A stretch of 64,000 nucleotides of DNA from an uncultured Candidatus Peribacteria bacterium (GTDB taxonomy: Bacteria; Patescibacteriota; Gracilibacteria; Peribacterales; Peribacteraceae): NCBI GenBank assembly GCA_964554435.1, contig CAZKOO010000004.1, forward strand, positions 2,116-66,115. Direction: 5' to 3'. The notes below the pieces were generated by a model, which ran no database searches, was not told the DNA's origin, and worked only from the letters and a program-made list of their open reading frames with translations. A program made the translations under genes and the position numbers. Each line of letters opens with the position of its first letter. The first letter of the stretch is position 1. Below are positions 559 to 60,230 of the stretch, in pieces.

Positions 559-1653
559 ATGTCTCTCCAAATTGGTATCGTCGGGCTTCCAAACGTCGGT
601 AAATCGACCCTGTTCAACGCACTCACGCGTAGCCATGGCGCGCAAGCCGCAAACTATCCATTCTGCACCATCGAACCAAACGTGGGCATTGTGGAAGTGC
701 CAGATGCACGTCTCAAACAACTTTCAGAGATCGTCCATCCTGAAAAAGTTGTCCCAACGATTGTGGAATTTGTGGATATTGCAGGGCTTGTGAAGGGTGC
801 CAGTAAAGGCGAGGGTCTTGGAAACGCATTTCTCTCGCATATTCGTGAAGTGAATGCCATTTGTCATGTTGTCCGCATTTTTGAAAATGATGATATCATT
901 CACGTCGAAGGCTCCATCAATCCTGTTCGCGATCGTGAGATTATTGAAATGGAACTCGTGATGAGTGATCTTGAAAAGGTATCGAAGCGCATCGAAAAAT
1001 TACAAGGTGGCGCGCGCAGTGGTAACAAAGAACAGCTCAAAGAACTTGCAGTGCTTGAAAAAATCAAACTCGTGCTCGATACAGGAAAGCTTGCATCGAC
1101 AAGCATTCTCGAAAAAGATGAGTTGCCATTTCTTGAATCGGCACAATTGCTCACTGGTAAAAAGATGATCTATGCGCTCAACACCGACGAGAAGGGAATT
1201 GGAACCATCTCTCTTGCTGATGCAAAAAAGAAAGCTGGTCTTTCTGACGACGATACTGCCATCATTGTCTCTGCAAAACTTGAGGAAGAGCTCATCACTC
1301 TGTCTCCCGAAGAAGGACAAGAGATGCTCACTGCTCTCGGCATTTCCTCTTCTGGTCTCGATGGACTCATTCGCGCAGCATATAGCGCACTTGGACTCGA
1401 AACCTACTTCACCGCAGGAGTGAAAGAAGTGCGAGCATGGACCATTCACAAAGGCTCCACTGCACCGCAGGCTGCAGGGGTGATTCATACCGATTTTGAG
1501 AAGGGATTCATCCGCGCCGAAACCATCGCTTTTGATGATTTTGTGCGTTGTGGCGGAGAACAAAAAGCAAAGGAATCTGGAAAAATGCGTACCGAAGGCA
1601 AGGAATACATCGTGAAAGATGGTGATGTATTGCATTTTCGATTCAATGTGTGA
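559..1653 (+). CDS. ychF: Redox-regulated ATPase YchF
   Basis: 364 aa with P-loop GLPNVGKSTLFNALT and a YchF C-terminal domain (KGFIRAE...DGDVLHFRFNV). Confidence 0.95.
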   Translation: MSLQIGIVGLPNVGKSTLFNALTRSHGAQAANYPFCTIEPNVGIVEVPDARLKQLSEIVHPEKVVPTIVEFVDIAGLVKGASKGEGLGNAFLSHIREVNAICHVVRIFENDDIIHVEGSINPVRDREIIEMELVMSDLEKVSKRIEKLQGGARSGNKEQLKELAVLEKIKLVLDTGKLASTSILEKDELPFLESAQLLTGKKMIYALNTDEKGIGTISLADAKKKAGLSDDDTAIIVSAKLEEELITLSPEEGQEMLTALGISSSGLDGLIRAAYSALGLETYFTAGVKEVRAWTIHKGSTAPQAAGVIHTDFEKGFIRAETIAFDDFVRCGGEQKAKESGKMRTEGKEYIVKDGDVLHFRFNV

Positions 1654-1724
1654 GAGAAAGGAACAATAGGAACGATATGAGTAATAGAACAAAAAGATAA
1701 AAGTGATTATGATATACTTTTCCT

Positions 1725-2084
1725 ATGCAAGAGCGACCCTATGAAAAACTCATTGCTTGGCAGGAATCATTTTCACTCTGTATTTGGATATACAAAATTA
1801 CAAAAAATTTCCCAAATGAAGAAAAATTTGGACTCATTAGCCAGATGAGACGCTCTGCATCTAGTGTTCCAATGAATATTGCAGAAGGTAATTCACGGTA
1901 TTCAAATAAGGATAAAATTCGATTTTTTGAAATAGCACTTGGATCAATTGAAGAATTACATTGTCAATTACGTATCGCTCTAGAACTTGAATTTATTGAT
2001 ATAAATGTTATGGAAAAAGCAAATAGCCGTATTAATAGAACTGCTTTTCTTATTACAAAGCTTAGTACATCATTTCGAGAATAA
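1725..2084 (+). CDS. Four-helix-bundle protein (23S rRNA intervening-sequence protein / Avd-like family)
   Basis: 119 aa with family motif FPNEEKFGLISQMRRSASSVPMNIAEG. A paralog of roughly 55-60% identity by eye lies at 27711-28067. Confidence 0.85.
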   Translation: MQERPYEKLIAWQESFSLCIWIYKITKNFPNEEKFGLISQMRRSASSVPMNIAEGNSRYSNKDKIRFFEIALGSIEELHCQLRIALELEFIDINVMEKANSRINRTAFLITKLSTSFRE

Positions 2085-2137
2085 TTCTTCTCTCCTTTAG
2101 TTCCTATCTTTCCTATTTTTCCTTTTGTTCCTCTACC

Positions 2138-2446
2138 ATGTTTATCGCTCGCGAAGAACCCTTCATCTGCGAACACTGCGGAGAGCAGGTTCAGCCCTTG
2201 CTAAAGGGAACGTATCGTGACCACTGTCCAAAGTGCCTCACCTCCAAACATGTTGATCGTGATGGCCCTGGCGATCGCCTTTCAGAGTGCCTTGGTCTAC
2301 TCAAACCAATTGCCATTGATAGTGATAGTAAAAAAGGCTTTGTGATTGTGTATGAATGCGAAAAGTGCCATAAAACCCATCGCAACAAAGCAAGTGAAGA
2401 CGATGACCTTATTGGATTTCTGAAGACAATAGACAGTAGATTGTAG
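2138..2446 (+). CDS. RNHCP-domain zinc-ribbon protein
   Basis: 102 aa with CxxC pairs and an RDHCPKC motif typical of the RNHCP domain. The last codons and the TAG stop lie inside a word-repeat tract. Confidence 0.7.
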   Translation: MFIAREEPFICEHCGEQVQPLLKGTYRDHCPKCLTSKHVDRDGPGDRLSECLGLLKPIAIDSDSKKGFVIVYECEKCHKTHRNKASEDDDLIGFLKTIDSRL

Positions 2447-2511
2447 ACACTAGACTTCCTTCTCTATGTAAACCACTATTTTCTAATTTTTTTCTATAAT
2501 CTATTGTCTAT
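2429..2511. repeat. Opposed word-repeat arms forming a long stem
   Basis: Arm 2429-2447 (ATAGACAGTAGATTGTAGA) pairs with 2493-2511 (TCTATAATCTATTGTCTAT). The stem is 19 bp including 2 G-U pairs and covers the stop codon of the upstream gene. Confidence 0.7.
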
Positions 2512-2711
2512 AATCTATGATCTCGTTAAATGTAAGAATTTCCATTGATCACTAAAATTGTTCTTTTAAAAGATTATTGATTAGGGCTCAAGTCCATTTA
2601 CTTGCTCTGTAATAATTTGAGAGTAGAGTTCCGTTCCATGCAGTGGTTCGTCTTCTTCGCCCTCTTCGGCTGTTTGTTCATTTCATTTTAGTTGACACAT
2701 AGAAAATACAC

Positions 2712-2739
2712 TTGACAAAAAGTAATATGTTAGTATAAA
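2712..2739 (+). promoter_or_regulatory. Sigma70-like promoter (TTGACA-16-TATAAA)
   Basis: Lies in a 60-bp module (2669-2728) that is duplicated at 3148-3207. Sits 34 nt upstream of the ATG at 2773. Confidence 0.55.
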
Positions 2740-2772
2740 ATTGTATTAAATTTTATTATAACAAAATTCCAA

Positions 2773-3075
2773 ATGGATTTTCTTAATGAGCGGCCTAATC
2801 TTTTATTTACAGTTCATGGCAATAGTCCTGATTCTAACCAGGTGCGTTATATACATGCTTTTATATCAAACTTTAATAAAAGGGTTGGTGTCTGTTTTGT
2901 CTTGTCAGATGATTCAACACCTTATGGATCTAGTGTTCCTCATCAAACAGCTCTCAAGGGACCAATTTATGAAATAAATAGTGAAAATGCTCAATTAGAG
3001 AATTTAATTAATGAATCTATTCGAATGGCAAGGGGAATATTGATAAAAGCCGGTTATTGGGTACCAAAAGAATAA
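2773..3075 (+). CDS. Hypothetical small protein (AT-rich island)
   Basis: 100-aa ORF behind a consensus-like promoter. Loosely resembles the next ORF in layout. No recognisable domain. Confidence 0.5.
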   Translation: MDFLNERPNLLFTVHGNSPDSNQVRYIHAFISNFNKRVGVCFVLSDDSTPYGSSVPHQTALKGPIYEINSENAQLENLINESIRMARGILIKAGYWVPKE

Positions 3076-3190
3076 ATCATATAAGGAGTCAGCCTGAAAT
3101 TAAAAGAAGTTCATATAAGTATTATGATGATGTATTCTTTTCCTCATGCTGTTTGTTCATTTCATTTTAGTTGACAAATAGAAAATATAC

Positions 3191-3218
3191 TTGACAAAAA
3201 GTAATATATATATATAAT
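3191..3218 (+). promoter_or_regulatory. Sigma70-like promoter (TTGACA-16-TATAAT)
   Basis: Second copy of the 60-bp promoter module. Sits 30 nt upstream of the ATG at 3248. Confidence 0.6.
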
Positions 3219-3247
3219 GGAATCATATTATTTCCCAATATAAAAAT

Positions 3248-3610
3248 ATGTCTCAACATTTAAAAGATACTCCTACTCTCCAGACTTCGAGTGCTGGTGA
3301 ATCTATTGCAGTTATTCATGGAAAAGTACCAGGAAATCATGCTGAAAGTATCCATTACGAAGATGTATTTGCGCATATTATTGATATTTCAGATGGACAA
3401 CGAGCTAAATTTGCATTGTTCTTTACTGATTCTCCAGATTTGAATGCTCAATCATCATTATCAACCGGTGATATGATATCGGCAGCACCATTAGAAGTGA
3501 CTTTTTCAACGCTAGAAACAGGAACCCATGAACCTACTCTCGAACAGGCAATAAAAAATGCAAAAGATCAACTTCAAGCAATGAACTTAGAAGTCGTAGA
3601 AAATGAGTGA
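3248..3610 (+). CDS. Hypothetical small acidic protein
   Basis: 120-aa ORF with a promoter upstream and a perfect palindromic terminator downstream. Confidence 0.55.
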   Translation: MSQHLKDTPTLQTSSAGESIAVIHGKVPGNHAESIHYEDVFAHIIDISDGQRAKFALFFTDSPDLNAQSSLSTGDMISAAPLEVTFSTLETGTHEPTLEQAIKNAKDQLQAMNLEVVENE

Positions 3611-3619
3611 CTTTGAAGC

Positions 3620-3649
3620 GTTAACCCCCGAATTAATTCGGGGGTTAAC
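3620..3649. terminator. Bidirectional hairpin (30-nt perfect palindrome)
   Basis: GTTAACCCCCGAATTAATTCGGGGGTTAAC lies between convergent genes. It forms a 13-bp stem with a 4-nt loop. Confidence 0.7.
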
Positions 3650-3659
3650 TTCGATAACT

Positions 3660-6600
3660 TTACGAACACCCACTCGTCCCTCCACAATCGAGGCACAACT
3701 CACACGAGCCGTTGCGCTTCATCTTGCTCGATCCACACGCAGAACAGGTGGTGCCTGTGTAGCCTTGTAGCTTCGCTTTCTCGAGAGGAGAAAGAGAGTC
3801 GTCATCTGTAGTGTGCGTGTCTGGAGAGTGTAATGCACTGAGAGGCATCTGCTCTTGCATGCCTTCATCGATCACTGGAAGGCGCATGGCAAACGCATCG
3901 CGGCTCTTGGTGCCTTCGCTGTAGGACTTCTCGACAAGCTCTTTGTTGTGGTACTTCATTGCCTTTTCCTTGGTAAGGAACTTGAGAGCAAGCCAACGGC
4001 CGAGGTAATCCATCAGGCTTTTTACCATCGGAATTTCACGGTTTGTGGTCATGCCCATTGGCTCGAAACGAGTGTGTGCAAGCTTTTCACAGAGCACTTC
4101 CAGTGGCACGCCGTACTGCAAGTTCATGGAAAGCGAGAGAGCGAGTGTATCCATCACTCCTGAAAGTGTTGAACCTTCTTTACTCATTTTGATGAAGATT
4201 TCGCCTGGTGTGCCATCTTCGTACATGCCAACGTGAAGGTAGCCATCGTGTCCTGCAACGGAGAACTTATGTGTCAGAGAAAGGCGCTCATCGGGCAGCT
4301 TCCTGCGACGTGGCACTTCTTTGATCACAATTTTTTCCACAATTTGCGTCTCTACTTTTTCTTCTTCCTCCTTCTTTTCGTCCGACGCAGTGCTTAAGGC
4401 TTGGCTCATCTTACTACCATCACGGTACAGAGCATTGGCTTTGATGCCGAGTTTCCAGGAAAGGAAGTACGCACTCTTGAAATCTTCGACTGTTGCTTCG
4501 TTTGGAAGGTTGATGGTTTTGCTGATGGCACCAGAGATGAACGATTGAGCAGCAGCCATCATGCGGATGTGACCTTCGGCAGAGATGGAACGCTTACCAA
4601 TTTTTCCACAACGGTTTGCGCAGTCAAACACTGCAAGATGTTCTGGCTTGAGATGTGGCGCGCCTTCAACGGTCATGTTTCCACAGATGATGGTGTTTGC
4701 TTCATCAATCTCTTTGCGCAAAAAACCAAGTGCAGAGAGAAGATCAAATGTTGGGCTTTCGATTTGCTCTTTTGTACATCCAAAGCGAAGAAGTGCATCA
4801 TCACCAAGGACCCATCTATTGAATGCAAAAGGAATTTCAAACACAGAAGGAAGTGTCTTCTCAATTTTTGCGATGTCTTCATCGGTAAAACCCTTTGCCT
4901 TCAGTGATGTTCGGTTGATGTGAGGAGCTCCTTCGAGTGTGAGCGTGCCAAGAACATACTTCATGATGTCGTTCATTTGATCATCAGTGTAGCCAAGTGT
5001 TTTGAGAGCTGGTTGAATGGATTGGTTTGCGATTTTCATGTATCCACCACCGGCAAGCTTCTTAAATTTGACGAGTGCAAAATCGGGTTCAATACCTGTT
5101 GTGTCGCAATCCATAAGAAGTCCGATGGTTCCTGTTGGCGCAACAACTGTTACTTGCGCATTACGATACCCATGACGCTCACCGAGTGCGAGAGCCTTGT
5201 CCCATGCCTCTTTTGCTGCTTCTTGCAAATCTTTTGAACAAATTTTTTGATCAATACCAACTGGCTTTACCGAAAGCGCTTCGTACTGCGATTCTGGCGC
5301 GTTGTAGGCCGCTCGACGGTGATTGCGAATGACACGAAGCATGTGTGCTTTGTTCTTTTCATACCCTGCAAATGTTCCAAGACTCTCTGCCATTTCTGCG
5401 GATGTGCTGTAGGCATCTCCTGTGAGGATGGCTGTGAGTGAGGCACAAATGGCACGACCTTCCTCGGAATCGTAGGGAATGCCCATCTGCATGAGCATTG
5501 CGCCAATGTTTGCGTACCCTAAACCTAGAGTACGGAAGCGGTAGCTGAGTTCTGCAATTTCCTTGCTTGGAAACTGTGCCATGAGCACAGACACTTCAAG
5601 AACGATGGTCCAGAGGCGAGTAGCGTGGCGATACGCGTCGATGTCGATCTGCTTCTTTCCAGATGCATCTTCTTTTACAAATTTGAGAAGATTCAGAGAT
5701 GCTAAGTTACACGCTGTGTTGTCGAGGAACATATACTCGCTACATGGGTTGCTTGCGTTGATGCGACCATCAGCAGGACATGTGTGCCAATCGTTGATGG
5801 TTGTGTCGTACTGCACTCCTGGGTCAGCACAGGACCATGCAGCGTACGCAATTTGATCCCAGAGTGCTGATGCCTTCATGGTCTTGCACGCCTTTGCAGG
5901 ACGCTGTTCTTTGACTGCCTTGCGAAGCTCTGTTCTCCAATACAAATTCCACTCACTGTCTGTTTCAAGAGCATGAAAAAATTGATACGGAATACGCACA
6001 GAGTTATTGGAGTTTTGGCCAGATACTGTGCTGTAGGCTTCTCCGTTGAAATCGCTATCGTAGCCTGCCTTTACGAGTGCTGCGACCTTCTTCTCTTCGT
6101 CTACTTTCCAGTTGATGAACTGCTCAATATCGGGGTGATCGAGGTCAAGACACACCATTTTTGCAGCTCTGCGAGTGGTTCCACCAGATTTAATGGCTCC
6201 TGCAGCACGATCTCCAATTTTGAGGAAACTCATGAGGCCAGAACTTTTTCCTCCTTGAGACAGTGGCTCTCCATCGCCGCGGAGATTGCTAAAGTTTGTT
6301 CCTGTTCCAGAACCATACTTAAAGAGACGCGCTTCACGAACCCAGAGATCCATGATGCCTCCTTCATTGACCATATCATCATCCACACTTTGAATGAAAC
6401 ACGCATGTGGTTGAGGGTGTGTATATGCATCTTCACTACGACGCATTTCGCCTGTTGTTGGATCGCAGTAGTAGTGTCCTTGTGCAGGACCTGTAATGCC
6501 ATAGGCAAAGTGAATACCTGTGTTAAACCACTGCGGACTATTGGGTGCTGCCATCTGATGTACGAGCATGTACTTCATCTCATCCTCAAATGCTTGCGCA

Positions 6601-22207: not shown

Positions 22208-22247
22208 GTATGACCAAGGTGATAGGTTTTAGGTTCTAGGTTTTAGG
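22204..22247. repeat. Word array (GGTGATA/GGTTTTA/GGTTCTA)
   Basis: Includes the TAG stop of the upstream gene. An opposed partner lies at 22401-22432. Confidence 0.7.
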
Positions 22248-22400
22248 AAACAAAACTCATGTCAAGTTCGTTTAGCGATTCTATACGGCTTTGCCTCAAT
22301 AATTTTGATTCTTCTCTCATAGAGCATTCGTATGAGAAGCCATTATGATGTTTCGGCTACGCCGATATATTCGAAATTATTAAAGCAAATTAGTATAATA

Positions 22401-22432
22401 CCTATGACCTATCACCTAAAACCTAAAACCTG
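22401..22432. repeat. Word array, opposite orientation (TATCACC/TAAAACC)
   Basis: CCTATGACCTATCACCTAAAACCTAAAACCTG. Its units are reverse complements of those at 22204-22247. Confidence 0.7.
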
Positions 22433-27029: not shown

Positions 27030-27662
27030 TTAACCTGCTATCATCGCAAGAACCTTCGGGTACCACTCTTTTTCGAGTTCTTGCACCTTTTTCTGTAGTG
27101 TTTCCACTGTCTCATCTTCATCAATTGAACACTTTTTTTGTACAATAATTTCCCCTGTATCCACTCCTTCATCCATAAAATGGATGGTAACTCCAGATTC
27201 TTTTTCACCTGTCGCAAGCACTGCCTCATGCACATGGTGACCATACATCCCCTTTCCGCCAAATTTTGGAAGAAGTGCAGGGTGCACATTGATGATCTGT
27301 TTTGCCCATTTTTTGGTAAACCATGGAGAGAAGATCCACATCCAACCCATGCACGCGATAGAAAAGTTGATAGTTGATAGTTGATAGTTGATAGTTCCCC
27401 TCTCCTCGCGGGGAGAGGGGTTAGGGGTGAGGGCATGAATGGCACTATCAATTCTATGATCGTAGCTTTCACGATCTTCATCCTTCTGTTTTTCTACCAC
27501 GATGTAGGGCACATTGTGTGCTTTTGCTTTTTCAATACATCCACGATCGGCGCGATCGGTCACGAGACCAAGGCATGGATTGTTGAGTGTGCCGTTTTGA
27601 ATAGCATGTAGCGTTGCTTCGAATGTTGTACCGCGGGAAGAAGAGAGGACGATGAAGGACAT
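27030..27662 (-). CDS. purN: Phosphoribosylglycinamide formyltransferase
   Basis: 210 aa from MSFIVLSSSRGTTFEA, with INVHPALLPKFGG and GVTIHFMDEGVDTGEII motifs. Carries a repeat insertion. Confidence 0.85.
   Translation of the reverse strand: MSFIVLSSSRGTTFEATLHAIQNGTLNNPCLGLVTDRADRGCIEKAKAHNVPYIVVEKQKDEDRESYDHRIDSAIHALTPNPSPREERGTINYQLSTINFSIACMGWMWIFSPWFTKKWAKQIINVHPALLPKFGGKGMYGHHVHEAVLATGEKESGVTIHFMDEGVDTGEIIVQKKCSIDEDETVETLQKKVQELEKEWYPKVLAMIAG
27366..27434 (-). repeat. Composite element: 4x GTTGATA + GC hairpin + GGTTAGGGGTGAGGGC, inside purN
   Basis: Read in-frame as ALTPNPSPREERGTINYQLSTINFS. A sister copy lies at 28793-28858. Confidence 0.85.
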
Positions 27663-27682
27663 TGTAAGAGGATTCAGAGGAA

Positions 27683-27711
27683 GCAGAAGAGTCAAAGGAA
27701 TCAGAGGAAAC
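27683..27711. repeat. Left inverted repeat of the four-helix-bundle cassette
   Basis: GCAGAAGAGTCAAAGGAATCAGAGGAAAC matches the reverse complement of 28100-28128 at 27 of 29 positions. Confidence 0.75.
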
Positions 27712-28067
27712 TATGATAATGCAGCGCTTAATCGTGTCAAAAGAAAACTGATACGCTTGATTGCGTCATCATAATGCTCAAAATCAGAAATTTTTATATA
27801 GTCTAAATCGGTTGATAGTCGCAATTCACAATGTAATTCTTCAAGTGATGCATGCGCAATTTCTATAAACCGCATCTTTTCTTTTGCAGATTTTTTCGTA
27901 TTTCCTTCTGCGATATTAATGGGGGCACTATATGCCGATCTGCGCATTTGACTTACTAATCCAAACTTTTCTTCAGATGGAAAAGTACATGTTAATTTAT
28001 AAATACTTACACATAATTTGTATGCTTCCTGCCACACTATTAGTTTCTCATATGGTCGTTCATGCAT
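27711..28067 (-). CDS. Four-helix-bundle protein (23S rRNA IVS protein / Avd-like family)
   Basis: 118 aa with FPSEEKFGLVSQMRRSAYSAPINIAEG. Paralog of 1725-2084. Confidence 0.85.
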   Translation of the reverse strand: MHERPYEKLIVWQEAYKLCVSIYKLTCTFPSEEKFGLVSQMRRSAYSAPINIAEGNTKKSAKEKMRFIEIAHASLEELHCELRLSTDLDYIKISDFEHYDDAIKRISFLLTRLSAALS

Positions 28068-28099
28068 AATACTATTATATCATAGGTTCAGGTTCCTCT

Positions 28100-28128
28100 G
28101 TTTCTTCTGACTCCTTTGACTCTTCTGC
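28100..28128. repeat. Right inverted repeat of the four-helix-bundle cassette
   Basis: GTTTCTTCTGACTCCTTTGACTCTTCTGC. Ends 5 nt before the carA stop codon. Confidence 0.75.
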
Positions 28129-28132
28129 ATCT

Positions 28133-29278
28133 TTATAATTGCATCAAGAATTCATCAAACAAATATGCTGCATCTTCTGGCCCTGGTGTTGCTTCGGGGT
28201 GAAATTGAACCGAGAAAAATTTACCAGATTCGTGACGAATGCCTTCCACTGTTCCATCGTTCGCGTTTGTAAACCACACACTCCAACCCTGAGGTAATGT
28301 GGATGCATCCACAGCAAAGCCATGATTTTGCGATGTAATGATGCAACGATCGGTTGCCTTTCCATCTTTCCATTCAATGCATGGCTGATTCAATCCACGA
28401 TGACCATATTTGAGCTTGTACGTATCTCCACCAATCGCAAGCGAGAGAAGCTGATTGCCAAGACAGATGCCGAAGGTTGGAATGTTCTGTTCAATTGCCC
28501 ATTTAATCTGAGTAATTGTTTCGGTGCACTTTTTTGGATCTCCTGGCCCATTGCTGATGAAGAGACCATCGTACTGTAATGATGAATTCTTGAGATCATA
28601 GTTCCATGGAACACGATGCACACGAACGCCTCGAGAAAGCCACGAACGAAGAATGCCACGCTTAATACCACAGTCGTAGACAACCAGTGTTTTTGGCTCG
28701 AGTCCTTCTTCCTTCTTCTCTGGCTCGTAGGTCACAACATCGGTACATGACACCTCCGCAACGAGATTGAGATTGTTCGGATCTAGAAAAGAGTTGGTAG
28801 TTGGTAGTTGGTAGTTGGTAGTTCCCTCTTCCTCTGGGGAGAGGGTCGGGGTGAGGGCACACATTCTCCCCAGCATCACTCCATGTTCACGGAGTTTTTG
28901 CGTGAGAGCTCGAGTGTCGATGCCGGAAATGCCTGGAATGTTGTGATGAACCATCCACTCATGTAGAGAGCTGACGGCCTTATGATGACTAAACTCACGC
29001 ACTTCTGAACTCACGATAATACCACGGACTTGAACAGCCTCACTCTCAAAATTTTTACTAAACCCATACTCATTCTTCTCTTCGCTAGGAACGCCATAGT
29101 TCCCAACAAGAGGATAGGTAAACACGAGTATCTGTCCACGAAAACTTGGATCGGTCATGGAGTCGGGGTACCCAACCATGCCCGTTGAAAACACTACTTC
29201 GCCATCTGTATCAATAGGCGCACCAAAAGACTCACCTTCGAATACTGTTCCGTCGGAAAGAAGAAGAGAAGCTGACAT
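28133..29278 (-). CDS. carA: Carbamoyl-phosphate synthase small (glutaminase) subunit
   Basis: 381 aa with a CPSase small N-domain and a GATase triad context (ICLGNQLL, HGFAV, FSVQFHPEA). Carries a repeat insertion in the interdomain linker. Confidence 0.9.
   Translation of the reverse strand: MSASLLLSDGTVFEGESFGAPIDTDGEVVFSTGMVGYPDSMTDPSFRGQILVFTYPLVGNYGVPSEEKNEYGFSKNFESEAVQVRGIIVSSEVREFSHHKAVSSLHEWMVHHNIPGISGIDTRALTQKLREHGVMLGRMCALTPTLSPEEEGTTNYQLPTTNSFLDPNNLNLVAEVSCTDVVTYEPEKKEEGLEPKTLVVYDCGIKRGILRSWLSRGVRVHRVPWNYDLKNSSLQYDGLFISNGPGDPKKCTETITQIKWAIEQNIPTFGICLGNQLLSLAIGGDTYKLKYGHRGLNQPCIEWKDGKATDRCIITSQNHGFAVDASTLPQGWSVWFTNANDGTVEGIRHESGKFFSVQFHPEATPGPEDAAYLFDEFLMQL
28793..28858 (-). repeat. 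Composite element: 4x GTTGGTA + GC hairpin + GGTCGGGGTGAGGGC, inside carA
   Basis: Read in-frame as ALTPTLSPEEEGTTNYQLPTTNS. Same architecture, orientation and frame as the purN copy. Confidence 0.85.
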
Positions 29279-29326: not shown

Positions 29327-30069
29327 GAAGCAGGATTCTTTCCTGCGGTCCTTTTTATAAAAAAGATACTTCATATCTTCATTTCTAATGGAGTCACATC
29401 CCATTTTCATGATGCAGAAGACCAAGGATAATCAGATTGACAAAAAGCAATGCCAGCTTTCACAGGATTGGCATGAATGTATGAAAGCACATTGTGTGCA
29501 TCATCTGGAAAAAGAAGGTGAAATCGTGATTGCCAAATTGGTCCTCGATCGATTGCAAATGCAGTTCCCCTTTTGAAGGTATACAATATTTTTGAGATTG
29601 ATCCATTGTCTGGAACACTAACTAAAAGATGTACATGATCTGGCATTATTGCAAATCCATAGAGAAAAAATGGAAAAATTTGCTGAGTACGATAGAGTGC
29701 AAGGACTGCTTCATTTGCATAAGCTGGCACTGAAAAAATAGTCTCTCTGTTTTGGGTATTTGTTATAATAAACATGATGGCACTATGCTGGATAGGATGT
29801 CTTTGAAAAGCCATATGTGTCATTGTAGAACAACCGCGCGAAGGAATCGCGCTCCTGTTTGTGTAAAACTTTGATGATCTCTCAATTTTTTGCTATCTAT
29901 AATCATTTTTTTAGTTCTGTGATGAAAAAGAACAGCTTAAAAAGAAGAAATAGTGTATAAAAGAAGATGCAAGACCACGCGAAAGAATCGCGCTCCTATT
30001 GTAATAAATTGAGATAAACGGTGGCAGGCTTATCATAAAAAACGGGAGCAGGATTCTTTCCTGCGGTCC
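29327..30069 (-). mobile_element. REPtron: RAYT gene bracketed by REP hairpins
   Basis: REPs lie at 29327-29352 (+), 29833-29856 (rc), 29974-29997 (rc) and 30044-30069 (+). The consensus is GGAGC(AGG/GCG)-ATTCYTT-(CCT/CGC)GCGG. Confidence 0.75.
29407..29823 (-). CDS. REP-associated tyrosine transposase (IS200/Y1 HUH family)
   Basis: 138 aa with HUH motif MPDHVHLLV and a catalytic Tyr context SYIHANPVKAGI. Confidence 0.8.
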   Translation of the reverse strand: MTHMAFQRHPIQHSAIMFIITNTQNRETIFSVPAYANEAVLALYRTQQIFPFFLYGFAIMPDHVHLLVSVPDNGSISKILYTFKRGTAFAIDRGPIWQSRFHLLFPDDAHNVLSYIHANPVKAGIAFCQSDYPWSSAS

Positions 30070-30099
30070 TCTTGTAAAAAATCCCCCCCCCACCATCTC

Positions 30100-37398: not shown

Positions 37399-37704
37399 AT
37401 GAGCAATGCATCTTCTCCATCTTCGCATGATTTTCAGTATCTCATCGAACTCATGCACCAAATGATGGAAAAGCAAGACATCATGCAAGAGCAACTCGAT
37501 GATGTAAAAGATGAATTAGTGATCATCAATTCTCGTCTTGATTCCACAAATGCGCGTATTGATGGCGTTGAAATAAAAGCAGAGCTTCGTCATTGTGACC
37601 TGATGGATGCACTGAATGAGAAAGTGGAGTTACTGAAAGATACAACCATCAATCATGAGCATCGGATTGTACGCGTTGAGCATAAACTAGAGCTTGCAGT
37701 GTAA
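37399..37704 (+). CDS. Hypothetical small coiled-coil protein, twin 1
   Basis: 101 aa from ATG 37399. Shares a 94-bp near-identical core with twin 2. Confidence 0.55.
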   Translation: MSNASSPSSHDFQYLIELMHQMMEKQDIMQEQLDDVKDELVIINSRLDSTNARIDGVEIKAELRHCDLMDALNEKVELLKDTTINHEHRIVRVEHKLELAV

Positions 37705-37731
37705 TTCTCTTCATTTCTTTTTTTCACTCCT

Positions 37732-38010
37732 ATGAGTACCCACATTACCTCCGACGACTCTCAATACATTATTTCACTACTACATCAAGTCATTGAAAAA
37801 CAATCAGAGCATGATCAGAAATTTGAATCTATAGAAGATCAATTTGATACAGTGAATGCGCGTATTGATGGCGTTGAAATAAAAGCAGAGCTTCGTCATT
37901 GTGACCTGATGGATGCACTCAATGAGAAAGTGGAGTTACTGAAAGATAAGACTCAAAATCACGAGCATCGTATTACTCATATAGAGCATGCACTTGGTCT
38001 TGCTGTGTAA
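37732..38010 (+). CDS. Hypothetical small coiled-coil protein, twin 2
   Basis: 92 aa with the shared core NARIDGVEIKAELRHCDLMDALNEKVELLKD. Confidence 0.55.
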   Translation: MSTHITSDDSQYIISLLHQVIEKQSEHDQKFESIEDQFDTVNARIDGVEIKAELRHCDLMDALNEKVELLKDKTQNHEHRITHIEHALGLAV

Positions 38011-38014
38011 CACT

Positions 38015-38287
38015 CTACTTCTTTTCCTCTTTCTTCGGCTCTTCTTTCTTTGCTTCTACTTTTGGTTCTTCTTTTGGCTTTTCTGCTGATGGCTCTGGCT
38101 TCTTTGGTTCTGACGCTGGAGGTGTAGAAGCTCCTGATAGTAAGTCCTTCATTTTTCCACTACAGTGTGAAAGTATATTTCGCAAAAATTGAGCCATCCC
38201 TCCACCTTTTGGAAGATTTGCTACACCTTCTGTAAGAGATCCTTTCTGTCGTAGATCTGTAAGTTGTGACATTGAACAGTGTCCCAT
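38015..38287 (-). CDS. Hypothetical protein with Lys/Glu/Pro-rich tail
   Basis: 90-aa ORF with a low-complexity C-half. Weak support. Confidence 0.3.
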   Translation of the reverse strand: MGHCSMSQLTDLRQKGSLTEGVANLPKGGGMAQFLRNILSHCSGKMKDLLSGASTPPASEPKKPEPSAEKPKEEPKVEAKKEEPKKEEKK

Positions 38288-38355: not shown

Positions 38356-40542
38356 CTACAGCCATCTTTTTGAGATGAAGGAACCTGCAATTCCTGCAAG
38401 GAGAGATAGTGCAACAGATGATAGACCTCCTTTTCCTTCTCTCTGTTCTGGTTCTTGTGTCAGTTCAAGTGTTGGCGTGTGCTGCTCTGCAAGAAGATCT
38501 TTCCGATACATCTCCGTGTAATAGACTTGTTTTTTACTGGTTTTCTTTGCAACTTTCTTCTTTACCGCTTTTTTCGATGATACTTTTTTCTCTTTTTTCG
38601 ATCCGTCATCATTCTTTTTCTGCATGGATGTGTCTTCTCCAATCTTTTCTTTAGTCTCATTTTGTACTATTTCTTCCTCATCACTTTCTTGCCATATTCC
38701 AAGGCTTTTTTCTTGAGAATCCTTCTCTGCTTGTGTATACTCTGACCTTCTTTTGTATTCTTTCTTCTTTTCAGCTTCTAACAGACCAATACTGATCAAC
38801 TCTTTCGCACTATCTTTCATGGTAGAATTTGAAAGATATGCTTGTAATTTTCCTTCTTTTGACCACAATTCTGTATCAAATTGTAGTTCAACTTTTTGAT
38901 CTTTTAAAAGGGCTCGAATAGTTTCTACTACTTCACTATTTTCCTCTGAAAATAATGCTCCAATCATCTGAAGAGGAATTTGCTCTTCGTTAAAGTATTT
39001 CTGAGCTGAAAGATCTGGTTGAAACAGGAGTGTTCCGTCGTCAAAGACTTCTACAAGTGTTCCGGTTATTTCTCCATCTCTACAGTCAGCGGAGTAATAC
39101 CTTCTCCCCTCTTCTGCTTTCTCCCAATCAATCGTCGAGACAGAAGCATCGAGTGGTGACACCAGCGTGACATGGCCAATGCTATTTGGAAGACTGATCT
39201 TCATTTCGCTAGAAAACAATATCCGCTCTTCACTTGGTGCAAGATCTCCTGTGAGTGCATACGTCGATAGCGTCGTATTACCAATCTTGAGCTTCCAGCC
39301 ACTCAAATGTACTGTGTCCTCTCCTCTATTTTTAATGATGACGGATTCTTTTCCACTATCGACTGAGTCGGGGTTTGGTAGTGCGGAAACGAGGAATAGA
39401 TTTGCAAAGGGTGAAGGATACGTGATAGGCATGCCGTCCGAGAGTGAGGCCTGCTTTGATGAACTCAGGACAATCTCTTTTGTCAAAATAGATGTTCCAC
39501 AGCTATTCTTCGCCTCGAGCGTCACCTGCGTTGTACCAATCTGGACAAACGCATGCGGTGGTGGATTACAACTCTCACTTGTGTATCCATCGGAAAACGT
39601 CCAATGACATGTACTGTCGGAAATGGACCCTGTGATGGCAACCGCCTGAAAGTTGACAGTGGTTTTATCGATACCAGTGAGTTCTCCGTCTTGGATGATG
39701 ATGGAAAGATTGGGAAGGAAACATTCAGAGGTTATAGGTTCTAGGTGATAGGCACTAGAAGCAAATGATGATTCAGGGGAGACAGATGGAGAAGAATCAG
39801 AGGAAGCAGAGGAAGCAGAAGAGGCAAGGGATGAAGAGGAAGTAGAGGAAAGAGAGGATGTGATTGACGGAGAAGAGACAGATGATGCAGGCGATGATTG
39901 CATACTTGATGATAAGGAACTATCGACGAGCAGAGCGGCATTTCTTGCCGCGATGTCAGATGATACAACAGCAAATGATGACACCGAATTCTGCACACCA
40001 GGCGTTGCAAGAACATTTGCACCGCCATCCATGTTGATTATCTCAATTGCTGATGACCAGTTTGAGGCATCAATTCCTGAGCCAAGTGGATCGATGCGCT
40101 CCATGCTTGCCTTCACTCCACCACTAGGATTGAGCCCTGCAAACGGGTTCCCCACCGCATCATCCACAGTATCAATGAGCAAAGAAGATTGATCAAATAA
40201 TTTGATCAATAATTTTGTATTCGGAAGAGAAATACTTGTAGTGACGAGAAAAGGATCGATGGCAAGACGCGAAGAATGTTGATCTTTATTCGAAAGAATA
40301 ATGTACTCATTGGGCGCGATCACTGACCCACTGGGAAATGTCACCATCACGCTTTCTTGTCCTGTGCTTTTGAGTGAAGTGATGGTGTAGCCAGAAAGAT
40401 CAATTTCAACGTGATCGGGATTATAGAGCTCTATCCATTCATCAGCAGTACTCAGGTCACTCCCCATCCACATCACTTCATTAATCACAACGTGCGCAGA
40501 GCAGAGAGATGGTATCAGAAAGAGAAATGCTGAAAGCATCAT
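38356..40542 (-). CDS. Membrane-anchored lamin-tail-domain (x2) protein with SNase-like C-terminal domain
   Basis: Signal peptide MMLSAFLFLIPSLCSA. LTD motifs VVINEVMWMG...EWIELYNP...LSGYTI and ALPNPDSVDSGKESVIIKN...LSGWKL. An SNase-like block (LQAYL...ELISIGLLEA...SLGIWQ), a Ser-rich linker and a C-terminal TM. Confidence 0.7.
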   Translation of the reverse strand: MMLSAFLFLIPSLCSAHVVINEVMWMGSDLSTADEWIELYNPDHVEIDLSGYTITSLKSTGQESVMVTFPSGSVIAPNEYIILSNKDQHSSRLAIDPFLVTTSISLPNTKLLIKLFDQSSLLIDTVDDAVGNPFAGLNPSGGVKASMERIDPLGSGIDASNWSSAIEIINMDGGANVLATPGVQNSVSSFAVVSSDIAARNAALLVDSSLSSSMQSSPASSVSSPSITSSLSSTSSSSLASSASSASSDSSPSVSPESSFASSAYHLEPITSECFLPNLSIIIQDGELTGIDKTTVNFQAVAITGSISDSTCHWTFSDGYTSESCNPPPHAFVQIGTTQVTLEAKNSCGTSILTKEIVLSSSKQASLSDGMPITYPSPFANLFLVSALPNPDSVDSGKESVIIKNRGEDTVHLSGWKLKIGNTTLSTYALTGDLAPSEERILFSSEMKISLPNSIGHVTLVSPLDASVSTIDWEKAEEGRRYYSADCRDGEITGTLVEVFDDGTLLFQPDLSAQKYFNEEQIPLQMIGALFSEENSEVVETIRALLKDQKVELQFDTELWSKEGKLQAYLSNSTMKDSAKELISIGLLEAEKKKEYKRRSEYTQAEKDSQEKSLGIWQESDEEEIVQNETKEKIGEDTSMQKKNDDGSKKEKKVSSKKAVKKKVAKKTSKKQVYYTEMYRKDLLAEQHTPTLELTQEPEQREGKGGLSSVALSLLAGIAGSFISKRWL

Positions 40543-45761: not shown

Positions 45762-46451
45762 TCACCACCCCTTCGCCTTCAGTCCTTGCTTTGCAGCGTC
45801 TTGTTCAGCTTTCTGCTTGGTGTTTCCTGTTCCTTCTGCAATTTTTTCTTCACCAATGTACACTGCGCAGGTGAAGACTTTCTTATGATCGGGGCCCGAT
45901 TCATCGAGTGTTTGATAGGTGGGAGTGATGCCTGTTTTTTCCTGTGCAATTTCCTGAAATGTACTCTTCTCATCTCTGTGTCTGCCTTTTGCTAGTAGTT
46001 GCTTTAAGTGAGTAAGAATGAAGGTATGAATGAAGCGTTTTGCGCAGTCTAAGCCTTGATCGAGATACATCGCGCCAATAAGAGCTTCTACGGCATTCGC
46101 AAGGGTAGAGTCTTTCTCGCGTCCTCCGCTTGCTTCTTCGCCTCTACTTAAGAACAAATATTCTCCGATGTGTAGTTCACGCGCTACTTCGCAAAGATGA
46201 TTGCCTTGCACAAGTGCAGAACGCCAACTGGTGAGTTCTCCCTCTGGTCGATCGGTGAGCTGATACAAATACTCTGTTGTAATGAGCTGCAAGACCGCAT
46301 CTCCTAAAAACTCCAGACGCTCGTTATGCCCTCTTTTCACGCGATCGACCATGGAAGAGCGATGTGTGAGGGCTTGAAAAAGTAATTCTTTATTCCGAAA
46401 TTTTATGCCAATTTTCTGCTCAAGTGGAGCCAAAGAAAGTGGATTTGTCAT
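45762..46451 (-). CDS. rnc: Ribonuclease III
   Basis: 229 aa with the NERLEFLGDAVL signature and a C-terminal dsRBD. Confidence 0.9.
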   Translation of the reverse strand: MTNPLSLAPLEQKIGIKFRNKELLFQALTHRSSMVDRVKRGHNERLEFLGDAVLQLITTEYLYQLTDRPEGELTSWRSALVQGNHLCEVARELHIGEYLFLSRGEEASGGREKDSTLANAVEALIGAMYLDQGLDCAKRFIHTFILTHLKQLLAKGRHRDEKSTFQEIAQEKTGITPTYQTLDESGPDHKKVFTCAVYIGEEKIAEGTGNTKQKAEQDAAKQGLKAKGW

Positions 46452-49669: not shown

Positions 49670-50039
49670 AATATCACCTGAAAATCGTACCTCTTCGTGA
49701 TGTACCTGATGATGCTAGGATGTATGGATCATTCATGATGTCATTCTTTTTCTTGTGTCAGCGTCTTAGAACTCTATTCTTGTTTCTTACTCATTGTTCT
49801 ATGCTATACTTCCATTTGTATGTTCTCATTTTGGAAAAAAAAGGAAGAAAAAAAAGACAATCAATTTATGAAAAAAATGATTGTTGGCTTTATTATTGGT
49901 GGAGCTATTAGCTCTATTGTTGGGAAAAAAGTGCTCGATGAGAGAAGAAAAAAACATTATGGAGAGAAGGAGGGCGAACTGAAGAATGAAGAATAACAAT
50001 AGGCACTACCACCCACTACTCACGTATAGCCAAAAGCCA

Positions 50040-50846
50040 ATGGCGAATAGCCCTCTCATCGTCGGCATTCTGAATATCACTCCCGATTCTTATGTTGATG
50101 GGGGAAAGTACATGAATGTTGAGATGGCTCTTTCGCATGCACAAAAAATGATAGAAGATGGCGCAACCATCATCGACATTGGCGGAGAGTCGAGCGGACC
50201 CTTGTCAAACGATATTTCTGCTGATGAAGAATGTGCACGAGTCGTTCCGGTGATCACAGCTCTCCATCACCATTTTCCGTCGATTAGACTTTCCATCGAT
50301 ACGACAAAATCTGTCGTTGCAACAGAAGCGCTTCTTGCTGGTGCGACGATGATCAATGATATTACTGCTGGACGAAGTGATCCGCATATACTCCACATTT
50401 GCGCAGAACATGGATGTGACGTTGTGCTAATGTATTCAAAAAATTCTTCTGCACGCACAACTATTGAACAAAAAAATTATACAGATATTATGGCGACTAT
50501 TCATACTTTCTTTGAAGGGAGAATAGAGGCCTGTCTACACGCTGGCATCACACGAGAGCACATCATCATCGACCCAGGGCTTGGACATTTTCTGTCGAGT
50601 GACGCTCGATATTCTTTTGAAGTACTGAACAGACTCTCTGAACTTTCTGATCTTGGGAAGATCTTTATTAGTCCTTCTCGAAAATCTTTTCTTGCAGGCA
50701 AACACAACCTCCCTCCAAGTGAACGTCTTCCTGCCACTCTTGCCGCAACAGTCATCGCCCTTCAAAATGGCGCATCGTTCATTCGCACGCATGATGTGTG
50801 GGAGACAGCAGAGGTGGTACGAGTGTGGGAGGCAATTAGCAATTAG
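50040..50846 (+). CDS. folP: Dihydropteroate synthase
   Basis: 268 aa from MANSPLIVGILNITPDSYVDGG, with IIDIGGESS and FIRTHDV motifs. Confidence 0.9.
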   Translation: MANSPLIVGILNITPDSYVDGGKYMNVEMALSHAQKMIEDGATIIDIGGESSGPLSNDISADEECARVVPVITALHHHFPSIRLSIDTTKSVVATEALLAGATMINDITAGRSDPHILHICAEHGCDVVLMYSKNSSARTTIEQKNYTDIMATIHTFFEGRIEACLHAGITREHIIIDPGLGHFLSSDARYSFEVLNRLSELSDLGKIFISPSRKSFLAGKHNLPPSERLPATLAATVIALQNGASFIRTHDVWETAEVVRVWEAISN

Positions 50847-50873
50847 CTTTTGGCTGTTGATTTTCTTGTTACT

Positions 50874-53319: not shown

Positions 53320-53662
53320 GAAGAATAATCTTGATTCATTGTATTTTTCCACTCGATCTTTTACTTGTACCGTATATTTTTACATACTGTACTACTACGC
53401 CAGTACAGTAGTATTTGGATCATTTTCATTCAATCAATCTTTCATCATTTTTTTGATGCTAGAATAAGATCTTACTTAAAGCATAATTTGATGATTCTAT
53501 TTTTTGATATTTGTACTTGTGTACTAGTACGATAGTACAGGATTCCGGCAGGTAGTTGGTAGAGCGATGAATCACGTCTCTACAGTCCCTATTCATTTCC
53601 TTACATACCTTACATCCATTATCTTTCCTTTGAATCGTCTGATTCTTTTGTTTCTTCTCAAC

Positions 53663-60126: not shown

Positions 60127-60230
60127 GTTTGTAGTTTGTAGTGGGTAGTAGGTAGAATATCCGAAGAAAAAGAGTAAAGATCTCTTTCTGTCTACTATCA
60201 ACTATCTACTATCTACTATTTACTACCCAC
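60124..60230. repeat. Opposed word arrays
   Basis: TTAGTTTGTAGTTTGTAGTGGGTAGTAGGTAGAAT ... GTCTACTATCAACTATCTACTATCTACTATTTACTACCCAC. Confidence 0.75.

Follow-up and report, generated by a model that had tools for sequence, protein, structure and literature searches.

A four-helix-bundle protein gene between carA and purN of a Peribacteria genome lies in a stem-bounded cassette resembling rRNA intervening sequences

[quoted passage not shown] All three genes are read from the minus strand, and the features of the locus, in the order of transcription, are:

28133 to 29278, minus strand: carA, with CPSase_sm_chain and GATase domains; upstream and co-oriented, with its own -10 box (gctacact) at -13.
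28100 to 28131, minus strand: 5' arm of the stem, sense GATGCAGAAGAGTCAAAGGAGTCAGAAGAAAC; purine-rich, made of period-9 words, beginning 1 nt past the carA stop codon.
28074 to 28082, minus strand: predicted extended -10 box TGaTATAAT, in the loop, followed by 6 nt and the IVP ATG.
27711 to 28067, minus strand: IVP gene, 118 aa, a PF05635/TIGR02436 four-helix bundle ("23S rRNA intervening sequence protein").
27713 to 27740, minus strand: sigma-70-like TTGACA-16-TATCAT, an 11/12 consensus match only, at the 3' end of the IVP ORF.
27680 to 27711, minus strand: 3' arm of the stem, sense GTTTCCTCTGATTCCTTTGACTCTTCTGCTTC; pyrimidine-rich, sharing the last base of the IVP stop codon and ending 17 nt short of the purN ATG.
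27658 to 27718, no strand assigned: period-9 word array from repeat analysis, source of the 3' arm.
27030 to 27662, minus strand: purN, with a Formyl_trans_N domain; downstream and co-oriented, with no -10 box before its ATG here.

The 118-aa ORF matched Pfam PF05635 (23S_rRNA_IVP) with an E-value of 9e-34 and 116.3 bits against a curated cut-off of 33.8, and the TIGR02436 profile with 106.1 bits against a cut-off of 24. Over residues 3-113 it is a relative of a solved four-helix-bundle structure, XCC0516 (PDB 2gsc, E 5.7e-21), and this homologue is described as a pentamer (Lin et al. 2006, as cited in PMC4990558). The dN/dS ratio of the window IVP against its orthologues was 0.17-0.20, within an overall range of 0.05-0.20; by this codon-level measure the protein is under purifying selection and therefore functional. 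The family is very large: clustering at 50% identity leaves at least 16,453 groups.

A preliminary description of this DNA had placed the gene between 29-nt inverted repeats. These were recovered at 27683-27711 and 28100-28128, agreeing at 27 of 29 positions (93.1%), and could be extended to 32 nt on each side (27680-27711 and 28100-28131), of which 29 positions are complementary (91%), with 388 nt between them. The cassette so defined, 27680-28131, is 452 nt long and lies inside a carA-purN gap of 470 nt on the same strand; since its two ends lie 1 nt past the carA stop codon and 17 nt short of the purN ATG, it nearly fills the gap, as had been proposed. The arms are composed of the period-9 purine words AGAGGAAGC, AGAAGAGTC and AAAGGAATC. 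A search of the 64 kb with an arm, allowing up to three mismatches, returned only the arm itself and its partner, and the number expected from 100 dinucleotide shuffles was zero. In the predicted structure of the sense-strand RNA from 28140 to 27655 the stem closes both the minimum-free-energy and the centroid fold, with a fold energy of -119.8 kcal/mol against -97.5 +/- 5.1 kcal/mol for shuffled sequences (z = -4.4). The element is flanked by carA and purN, and not by an rRNA helix (9, 25 or 45) or 16S rRNA; Rfam and tRNA scans of the 64-kb window gave no match. A third arm-like copy, 84% identical, is present at 63372-63414, and words similar to those of the arms also occur within a gene at 39772-39895.

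The window contains a second PF05635 gene of the same construction on the opposite strand:

1652 to 2132, plus strand: second cassette, between ychF (559-1653) and an RNHCP gene (2138-2446).
About 1652 to 1696, plus strand: 5' arm, from the inverted-repeat search.
1725 to 2084, plus strand: ORF of 119 aa, 58% identical to the first IVP.
2092 to 2132, plus strand: 3' arm, from the inverted-repeat search.

The start region of this second gene reads TGaTATACT, 6 nt and ATG, and the arm sequences of the two cassettes are unrelated to each other. When the flanks of the 65 ORFs in the window were scored for complementarity, the two PF05635 genes alone stood out, with scores of 24.5 and 16.5; no other ORF scored above 11. 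A hairpin lacking an ORF was also seen at 22217-22431, and no IVP remnant was recognizable by eye in its 153-nt loop.

The arrangement carA-IVP-purN, with arms, was found in relatives at loci L081 (IVP 92% identical at the amino acid level), L082 and L083 (77%) and L050 (54%); the closest genome in the species collection has a CarA only 76% identical to that of the window. The bracketing first noted in the window extends to all of the relatives' genes at the carA locus (L081, L082, L050, L085, L084, L090, L007, L042, L037, L025 and L004). Synonymous divergence (dS) is 0.98 between the window and L082 and 2.1 between L050 and L085, and the arms are complementary within each of these cassettes. 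At the sequence level this shows that arm complementarity has been maintained beyond synonymous saturation in orthologous carA-IVP-purN cassettes. Between the window and L081, one G:C pair was replaced by A:T through changes on both arms.

Arms were detected for 55 out of 72 family members on other contigs and for nine of 189 neighboring ORFs. A flank score of 12 was reached by 76% of IVP genes compared with 4.8% of control ORFs at the same loci, and about a quarter of the family members have no detectable arms. Across the 72 cassettes the median score was 16.0 for cognate flanks and 7.5 for non-cognate flanks (Mann-Whitney p 3e-32), the cognate score lying above the non-cognate 95th percentile in 56 and above the 99th percentile in 39. 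Cognate arms thus pair far better than non-cognate arms and are not mere copies of local words. RNAduplex energies of 120-nt flanks had been tried for this comparison and separated the two classes weakly (medians of -56.5 and -42.3 kcal/mol); they were replaced by a Watson-Crick local alignment score because purine-rich and pyrimidine-rich flanks pair promiscuously.

The arm words are locus-specific, tandem and 7-9 nt long, with a period of 7 in 22 of the 28 periodic cassettes, and the median element length is 469 nt. In 48 of 52 cassettes it is the 5' arm that is rich in purines (p 1e-10), and 40 of 43 upstream neighbors share the orientation of the cassette (p 6e-4; baseline 0.72). Both biases depend on orientation and, like the lack of a terminator between carA and purN, favor a function in the sense transcript. 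No G.U excess was seen on the sense strand at the arm positions that depart from Watson-Crick pairing (57 of G.U type and 76 of A.C type, p 0.12), so that wobble-tolerant selection on the sense RNA is not visible. At L132 a variant unit has spread in one arm only (four GGGGAAT units opposite four AGTCCCC units), which indicates that homogenization of an arm can outrun pairing. One word family sometimes occupies three to four consecutive spacers and brackets neighboring genes as well; the arrays may accordingly have a role not tied to the cassette. IVP genes on Nostoc and Picosynechococcus plasmids have the same stem-gene-stem build, and the same arms surround the IVP gene of Picosynechococcus cmr2-IVP-cmr3, which looks like a wedged cassette. 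By sequence comparison, the stem-gene-stem layout is the rule for the PF05635 family, whether its members lie in rRNA or elsewhere. In the open-access literature searched, nothing was found that describes such inverted arms flanking PF05635 genes at sites other than rRNA.

The TGaTATAAT element in the loop is predicted to be the gene's own promoter, giving a leaderless IVP mRNA. Among the 17 IVP cassettes closest to it (Peribacteria-type), 14 have the motif TANNNT at exactly -12, compared with 11 of 64 window ORFs, and in orthologues the -10 box is kept while the arms diverge. Ahead of purN, relatives free of the cassette have GCTACACT followed by 6 nt and the ATG. The sigma-70-like site near the end of the IVP ORF has a counterpart in L081 (TTGACA-16-TATCCT), and this sequence match could provide a purN transcript with the 3' arm alone as its leader. 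No terminator-like site was found on the minus strand from carA to purN. CU-rich leaders precede many of the genes in the window.

The window also encodes the enzyme on which our preferred reading depends:

45762 to 46451, minus strand: rnc (RNase III), full-length, with Pfam Ribonuclease_3 and dsrm domains, 18 kb from the cassette.

This gene was found by tblastn with an E. coli RNase III query (41% identity, E 5e-44). The reading that we consider somewhat probable is that of an IVS-type cassette that carries a conserved, expressed IVP gene, with a leaderless promoter in its loop and a stem that forms in read-through transcripts and is presumably cut by RNase III. The cassette is wedged in the 3' untranslated space of the co-oriented carA, directly ahead of purN. 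IVP would be translated from a leaderless mRNA that starts at the extended -10 promoter of the loop and lacks the 5' arm, whereas read-through from carA would carry both arms and form the 32-bp stem. RNase III would then cut this stem, just as it cuts rRNA IVSs and the processing stems of 16S and 23S rRNA, freeing the cassette RNA and parting the carA message from the purN message. Such release would allow the cassette to reside harmlessly within a transcription unit or an rRNA. The arms would evolve by turnover of tandem units, one arm following the other, and inheritance of the cassette would be mostly vertical, with gain, loss and replacement being rare. It counts against this model that IVP transcripts started in the loop, should they be the majority, would be without the 5' arm and so unable to form the stem. 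The missing G.U excess, the one-armed spread of a unit at L132, the family members with no detectable arms and the arrays that also bracket neighboring genes weigh against it as well.

A much broader version seems quite unlikely to us. PF05635 genes and locus-specific word arrays may be parts of one widespread, structure-defined system that punctuates operons and rRNA for RNase III, with an Avd-like pentamer as a trans partner that binds the stems; rRNA IVSs, many STRR arrays and the "CRISPR-associated" four-helix-bundle genes would then be faces of this system. At L106, L123 and L148, arrays of one word family alternate in orientation in successive spacers. Under this broader version, arrays might pair across genes, and the protein could even have a part in copying one arm from the other, on the model of Avd, which acts in templated cDNA synthesis in diversity-generating retroelements (DGRs).

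A rather unlikely alternative is that the element is a quasi-palindrome at the DNA level with no role in RNA. During replication, intramolecular template switching or gene conversion from one array to the other, plus slippage within the arrays, would keep the arms alike, and the stem would be a by-product or would act as a cruciform or as a hairpin in single-stranded DNA. This explanation accommodates a sense strand not enriched in G.U pairs and arms that change by turnover of whole units and homogenized variants, as observed between L114 and L132 and between L101 and L102. Concerted evolution could likewise explain complementarity that lasts at dS > 1, and a promoter in the loop would exclude the 5' arm from the gene's own mRNA. 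A symmetric DNA structure, however, predicts neither the purine bias of the 5' arm (48/52) nor the co-orientation of upstream genes (40/43), and the same arms occur in rRNA, where they are a demonstrated RNA substrate (PMC4990558).

The stem might instead regulate its neighbors in cis with no part for RNase III, which we judge improbable. Pairing would hide the CU-rich leader of purN, a Rho-loading site or the Shine-Dalgarno-like 5' words, so that the neighbors are translated or transcribed in step with read-through and with translation of IVP. In 23 of 54 cassettes the 3' arm begins no more than 3 nt from the stop codon, and at that distance a terminating ribosome would melt the stem. The CU-rich leaders before many window genes, the GGAG within the 5' words of cyanobacterial cassettes, and the loss of the purN -10 box at the locus with the cassette also fit such regulation. 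Against it, a 32-bp duplex with 29 of 32 positions paired is a generic substrate for RNase III, which the window encodes, and the same arms are found in rRNA, where no neighboring gene is regulated.

Active mobility of the cassette as a MITE-, foldback- or IS-like element, its arms serving as terminal inverted repeats for transposition, appears very doubtful. Its distribution is patchy, IVP lying directly 3' of carA at six of 47 Peribacteria genome loci, and at least four IVP lineages share the carA site: the main clade, L037 (about 40% identical), L025 (29%) and L004. The two copies at L037 are each other's closest relatives (62% compared with at most 50%), word hairpins lacking an ORF at the carA site of six loci (L012, L021, L030, L035, L039 and L043) could be footprints or targets, and mobility of IVSs has long been suspected (PMC4990558). 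However, the arms differ at every locus, even between the two window copies, and therefore offer no sequence-specific end to a transposase; the unit encodes none, and its protein is under purifying selection. Inspection of the window cassette by eye revealed no target-site duplication, the arm ends being fuzzy. Where a protein recurs unchanged, its context recurs with it (P0106 and P0063, on five to six contigs each, always have the same one), no near-identical copies were found at different sites, the window paralogues being 58% identical, and close relatives (82-92% at the amino acid level) are orthologous with conserved flanks. The suggestion that the cassette is mobile is weak: recent mobility is not supported, given these shared contexts and orthologous flanks, and past insertions are suggested only by the deep patchiness and by the several IVP lineages at carA.

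An inverton, in which inverted repeats flank a promoter-bearing segment that flips, would fit repeats of about 30 bp around a segment of about 390 bp with a promoter-like box, but is very improbable given a single orientation in 12 of 12 carA-site cassettes, the 5' position of the purine-rich arm in 48 of 52, arms that are not common to the loci and so provide no shared recombinase site, and no adjacent invertase or recombinase gene. Chance pairing of low-complexity word repeats, despite the nature of the arms and the similar words at 63372-63414 and 39772-39895, is refuted by the shuffles (zero expected), the window ORFs (only two IVP genes bracketed among 65), the cognate comparison (p 3e-32) and the controls (4.8% compared with 76%), which leaves it a negligible prospect.

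These data recast the classical rRNA IVS: an rRNA location, seen at one of 60 related loci, is a special case of a general stem-gene-stem cassette found mostly at gene junctions. This gives a testable handle on a very common protein of "function unknown", whose conserved partners are the word stems around its gene and, presumably, RNase III. Part of the tandem heptamer arrays of cyanobacteria and CPR bacteria may be explained in the same way, and arms that remain complementary despite complete sequence turnover represent natural concerted evolution of a long-range helix. The layout is also a warning about guilt by association, as four-helix-bundle genes have been listed as CRISPR-linked because of their location between cas genes (PMC3936711, PMC10910872).

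Several known systems share parts of this architecture. Avd, the DGR accessory protein (bAvd, PDB 4DWL), has a homologous four-helix-bundle fold, but the profile matches are weak and below cut-off (PF22296, 31.2 bits against 40; NF033474, 35.7 against 80), and neither a reverse transcriptase nor a template or variable repeat adjoins the IVP gene, whose immediate neighbors are carA and purN. In integron cassettes (attC), too, a small gene unit poor in promoters goes with an imperfect inverted repeat whose structure, and not its sequence, defines it; attC, however, is one contiguous 3' hairpin recombined by IntI, whereas the arms of the window cassette flank the ORF and no integrase is present. 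Cyanobacterial STRR arrays are likewise tandem heptamers in intergenic DNA. Arrays of GGGGACT, which we take to be the complement of the STRR1 unit CCCCAGT, form the arms in L108, L114 and L121, and arrays of CAGGAGT are found in the Nostoc and Trichormus cassettes. In the literature searched, STRRs are described as dispersed repeats and fingerprinting targets, and nothing was found that treats them as inverted pairs enclosing the genes of one particular family.

RNase III stems that bracket 16S and 23S rRNA, and sites between the early genes of phage T7, are established (PMC8708148). There, too, flanks pair over a long range around a functional unit in a longer transcript and cutting frees the unit, but here the stem encloses a small protein gene, and tandem words peculiar to each locus make up its arms. 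The closest likeness is to the IVSs of rRNA, as in Coxiella burnetii and Leptospira (S23p ORF). The Coxiella IVS is 428-444 nt long, with a 28-bp stem in which an RNase III cut has been mapped and three AG-rich GACAGAT heptamers (PMC4990558). Words of this kind are also seen in the 23S IVS of Azospirillum lipoferum (GACAGAG/GACGGAG) and at L127, the one locus of 60 within LSU rRNA and a bona fide 23S IVS, with 57-nt arms of GGGGCGA words. The host of the window cassette, by contrast, is the protein-coding carA-purN junction; the Coxiella ORF is reported to be decaying and untranslated, whereas the window IVP is preceded by a -10 box of its own and evolves under purifying selection, and excision by RNase III, known for the rRNA IVS, is predicted for the window cassette. 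In both, a PF05635 ORF lies in the loop in the sense of the host transcript, terminal arms form a stem of about 28-32 bp, AG-rich tandem short repeats of variable copy number precede the ORF, and the total length is about 430-470 nt. With its PF05635 gene, stem of about 30 bp, purine-rich 5' tandem words and length of about 450 nt, the anatomy of the window cassette matches the proposal of an IVS-like cassette outside rRNA.

The carA-purN gap of the window holds a gene of the four-helix-bundle family PF05635 (hereafter IVP, for intervening sequence protein) between two complementary arms, which confirmed the stem-bracketed cassette reported in the preliminary description. All parts of the locus lie on the minus strand:

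29278-28133, minus strand: carA, the upstream host gene; one base separates its end from the 5' arm
28131-28100, minus strand: 5' arm, purine-rich, 32 nt, followed by a 32-nt spacer before the ORF
28067-27711, minus strand: IVP ORF, 118 aa, PF05635 match
27711-27680, minus strand: 3' arm, pyrimidine-rich, 32 nt, overlapping the last base of the ORF stop codon
27662-27030, minus strand: purN, 17 nt beyond the 3' arm

An inverted-repeat search found the arms complementary at 29 of 32 positions, and re-computation returned the same coordinates and the same 27 matches for the 29-nt repeats described before. No further match to an arm with three or fewer mismatches was found in the 64 kb, where none is expected by chance. 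When the sense strand was folded as RNA, the MFE and centroid structures were both closed by this stem (z -4.4). The 118-aa protein belongs to PF05635 (E 9e-34) and to TIGR02436 'four helix bundle protein', and is related to XCC0516 (2gsc), a solved pentameric four-helix bundle (E 5.7e-21); an Avd identity was ruled out by curated models. The closest CarA relatives, at most 76% identical, came from Candidatus Peribacteria / Peregrinibacteria MAGs, and the closest IVP homologues were labelled likewise.

Tandem words with periods of 7 and 9, degenerate in sequence, abound throughout the window, bearing out an earlier remark on local word repeats, and the arms are made of such words. The pairing of the arms was specific despite this background: when the 105 nt upstream and downstream of 65 non-overlapping window ORFs were scored for complementarity, only the two PF05635 genes stood out (24.5 and 16.5), with every other ORF at 11 or less. 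The second IVP copy (1725-2084, between ychF and an RNHCP gene) is 58% identical to the first, and its arms are quite unlike those of the first in sequence (AAAGGAACAATAGGAACGATA... vs ...TATCTTTCCTATTTTTCCTTT). A third copy of the 5'-arm sequence at 63372-63414 (84% identical to 28094-28136, 88% complementary to 27678-27711) has no PF05635 gene nearby and sits in a spacer crowded with further word arrays, where there is also a GCAGGT..ACCTGC hairpin. Word-repeat hairpins lacking an ORF were seen at 22217-22431, 60140-60231, 53384-53543 and 62732-62832 (arms 20-31 nt, 70-90% complementary; loops 50-153 nt), the first between two co-oriented genes and directly ahead of a -10 box, 6 nt and an ATG; these may be ORF-less counterparts of the cassette, like short IVSs in rRNA. 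The folP gene (50040-50846, Pterin_bind) lies between the two 25-nt arms of an inverted repeat made of AGCCAAA words (50028-50052 / 50831-50855, 84% complementary), which take in its start codon and its stop codon.

A profile search built on 46 homologues yielded 80 loci from metagenomes (35-61% identical), and the 72 cassettes for which both flanks were available were scored. Median complementarity was 16.0 for cognate flanks and 7.5 for non-cognate flanks; 56 of the 72 exceeded the non-cognate 95th percentile and 39 the 99th (p 3e-32). A score of 12 was reached by 55/72 IVP genes vs 9/189 other ORFs in the same loci. Of these nine, two are IS elements whose terminal repeats are genuine, one is the second IVP in locus L037, and the rest neighbour an IVP gene and share its arrays. 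Detectable arms were absent in about a quarter of family members. Among 54 clearly bracketed cassettes, the 5' arm was purine-rich on the coding strand in 48/52 (p 1e-10), the 3' arm started 3 nt or less from the stop codon in 23, the word period was 7 in 22 of 28 with clear periodicity, and the median arm-to-arm length was 469 nt. The upstream neighbour was co-oriented in 40/43 cases, vs 64% of adjacent window ORFs (p 1e-5; p 6e-4 against a generous 72% baseline); downstream co-orientation (24/36) reflected the usual bias only. Purifying selection acts on the proteins (dN/dS 0.05-0.20), and clustering the family at 50% identity gives no fewer than 16,453 clusters. In four loci (L106 at 700-4200, L123, L148 and L132) one word family can fill three to four successive spacers in alternating orientation, as in [TATTCAA]-pilB-like-[TTGAATA]-IVP-[TATTCAA]-pilC-like-[TTGAATG] of L106; an array before the IVP can thus pair to either side, bracketing neighbour genes too.

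The order carA-IVP-purN is shared by metagenome contigs L081 (IVP 92% identical) and L082/L083 (77%) and by genome locus L050 (54%), and arms were present in all of them. Orthologues align well over the ORF and over the box TGnTATAnT + 6 nt + ATG, whereas their arms diverge fast. A comparison of the window with L081 (dS 0.20) showed one G:C pair converted to A:T through a change in each arm, two pairs turned into G.U and two lost; against L082 (dS 0.98; arms 41 nt in L082), the window arms were barely alignable, yet each cassette was internally complementary. Further cassettes lie directly 3' of carA in L084, L085, L090, L007, L042, L037, L025 and L004, the word differing per locus (GAGGAGTCC in L007, AAAGGACT in L042, GAATACA in L037, TAGTTGA in L025, AATTGAAAA in L004). 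A species-level genome scan found an IVP at this site in 6/47 Peribacteria loci. In IVP-less relatives with same-strand carA and purN (L001, L002, L022, L026), the gap measures 60-210 nt and a GCTACACT/GCTATCCT box lies 6 nt ahead of the purN ATG; this box is absent where the cassette is present. ORF-less word hairpins occupy the site in L012, L021, L030, L035, L039 and L043, and a word stem with non-coding cargo in L017. In L050 (7131-7310) and L096 (1879-2100), the carA stop is followed by a hairpin element of about 160 nt, a second copy of the 3' end of carA (residues 330-378, 47% identical) and, after it, the cassette 5' arm.

The carA-site proteins are not monophyletic: the L037 copy is nearest to the other copy of its own genome (62% vs at most 50%), and the copies in L025 and L004 belong to distant lineages. 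The deep patchiness, together with the several protein lineages found at a single site, speaks for past gain or replacement of cassettes. Mobility formed part of the original proposal. Active mobility was not supported: identical IVP proteins were found only in identical contexts, close-relative cassettes were orthologous (flanking proteins 79-98% identical), within-genome copies were old (58-62% identical) and did not have arms in common, so there is no sign of current transposition or of a sequence-specific end. The other part, an IVS-like cassette outside rRNA, was upheld by the anatomy and extends across the family.

TANNNT occurs exactly 12 nt before the ATG in 11/64 window ORFs, a sharp peak, and at the same position in both window IVP genes and 14/17 of the closest IVP cassettes. 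This peak points to -10 boxes set for leaderless mRNAs, and thus to an IVP promoter inside the loop, and suggests that this genome makes frequent use of leaderless mRNAs. CU-rich leaders without a Shine-Dalgarno sequence precede many of the other window genes. The IVP would be transcribed from its own loop promoter, giving transcripts without the 5' arm. No terminator-like site was found on the coding strand between carA and purN; with the preferred co-oriented upstream gene, read-through transcripts with both arms are expected, and carA read-through RNA would form the stem. A 32-bp duplex paired at 29 positions is a generic RNase III substrate, and a full-length rnc gene is present at 45762-46451. 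By analogy with rRNA IVSs and 16S/23S processing stems, RNase III would cut the stem, releasing the cassette RNA and uncoupling the carA and purN messages; such processing is plausible. A TTGACA-16-TATCAT match where the IVP ORF ends may in addition act as a promoter for purN. The arms would evolve through tandem-unit turnover: orthologues L114 (GGGGACT) and L132 (GGGGAAT) differ by one substitution in every unit, which in L132 is confined to one arm.

A purely DNA-level explanation, in which template switching acts on a quasi-palindrome, is a serious alternative. On the sense strand, mismatches comprised 57 G.U vs 76 A.C, and this lack of G.U enrichment, the loop promoter that bypasses the 5' arm, and the armless quarter of the family are points against an RNA-level role. 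Template switching leaves both the strand asymmetry of the arms and the orientation bias of the neighbours unexplained.

The window carries other repeats as well. One in-frame insert, a GC-rich hairpin (CCCTCTCC...GGAGAGGG) with ACCAACT/ATCAACT heptamer words, is shared by carA (28788-28858) and purN (27354-27434) and translates as ..LTPxxSPxEExGTTNYQLPTTN.. within a hypervariable linker; L082 has it in both genes, and other relatives carry different word-like inserts there (e.g. SKDSKDSE and GTKVIEGTEGTD). Such colonisation of coding linkers is reminiscent of Rickettsia palindromic elements. Just upstream of carA, an IS200-like Y1 transposase ORF (29407-29823; Y1_Tnp, E 6e-9) is flanked by two 35-nt hairpin repeats (29329-29363 and 30047-30081; AGCAGGATTCTTTCCTGCGG, 89% identical), an arrangement like REP/RAYT; four further copies, which belong to a related hairpin family (GCAGGTAGAAACCTGC), lie at 8844, 20929, 50937 and 53674. 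Direct repeats of 70 nt (2669-2738 / 3148-3217, 91% identical, with TTGACA...TATAAT-like boxes, preceding small ORFs 2773-3075 and 3248-3610) and 182 nt (37538-37719 / 37844-38025, 82% identical) were also observed.

Ribosomal RNA IVSs with S23p ORFs have long been known, and so has the common occurrence of PF05635 genes elsewhere than in rRNA. In Rfam scans of 60 of the loci, one cassette (L127) lay within a 23S rRNA gene, and its arms, GGGGCGA words over 57 nt, were the best of any cassette. Two further cassettes, from unrelated loci, sit immediately 5' of tmRNA and a third adjoins 5S rRNA (these three in L116 183-1026, L146 2489-3314 and L120 728-1251). Stable-RNA genes beyond 23S and 16S may be favoured hosts. 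PLSDB entries of the family, most of them from Nostocales, bear the annotation 'four helix bundle protein' or 'S23 ribosomal protein', and the following cases were inspected:

Nostoc punctiforme pNPUN01: between co-oriented genes; arms of CAGGAGT/CAGAATT words vs TGACTCCTGA...
Trichormus variabilis plasmid C: between co-oriented genes; arms of the same word type as in N. punctiforme (CAGGAGT/CAGAATT)
Picosynechococcus PCC 7003: cmr2-IVP-cmr3; arms of GGAGATA words
Azospirillum lipoferum p2: inside 23S rRNA; arms of GACAGAG/GACGGAG words
Nostoc PCC 7120 alpha plasmid: not wedged closely between genes, since the record lists a transposase upstream, about 550 nt away and on the opposite strand, and no gene downstream; no detectable arms (score 7.5)

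PF05635 genes were reported earlier inside cas loci (PMC3936711, PMC10910872) and in CPR rRNA insertions (PMC11270868); no description of inverted word arms as a family-wide trait outside rRNA was found in the open-access literature. The Coxiella IVS, which has been studied experimentally, has a 28-bp terminal stem as well as an AG-rich stretch and then three GACAGAT heptamers, whose number differs among strains, and is cut by RNase III at the first repeat (PMC4990558). This known IVS is matched anatomically by the window cassette in every respect; the two differ in their host.
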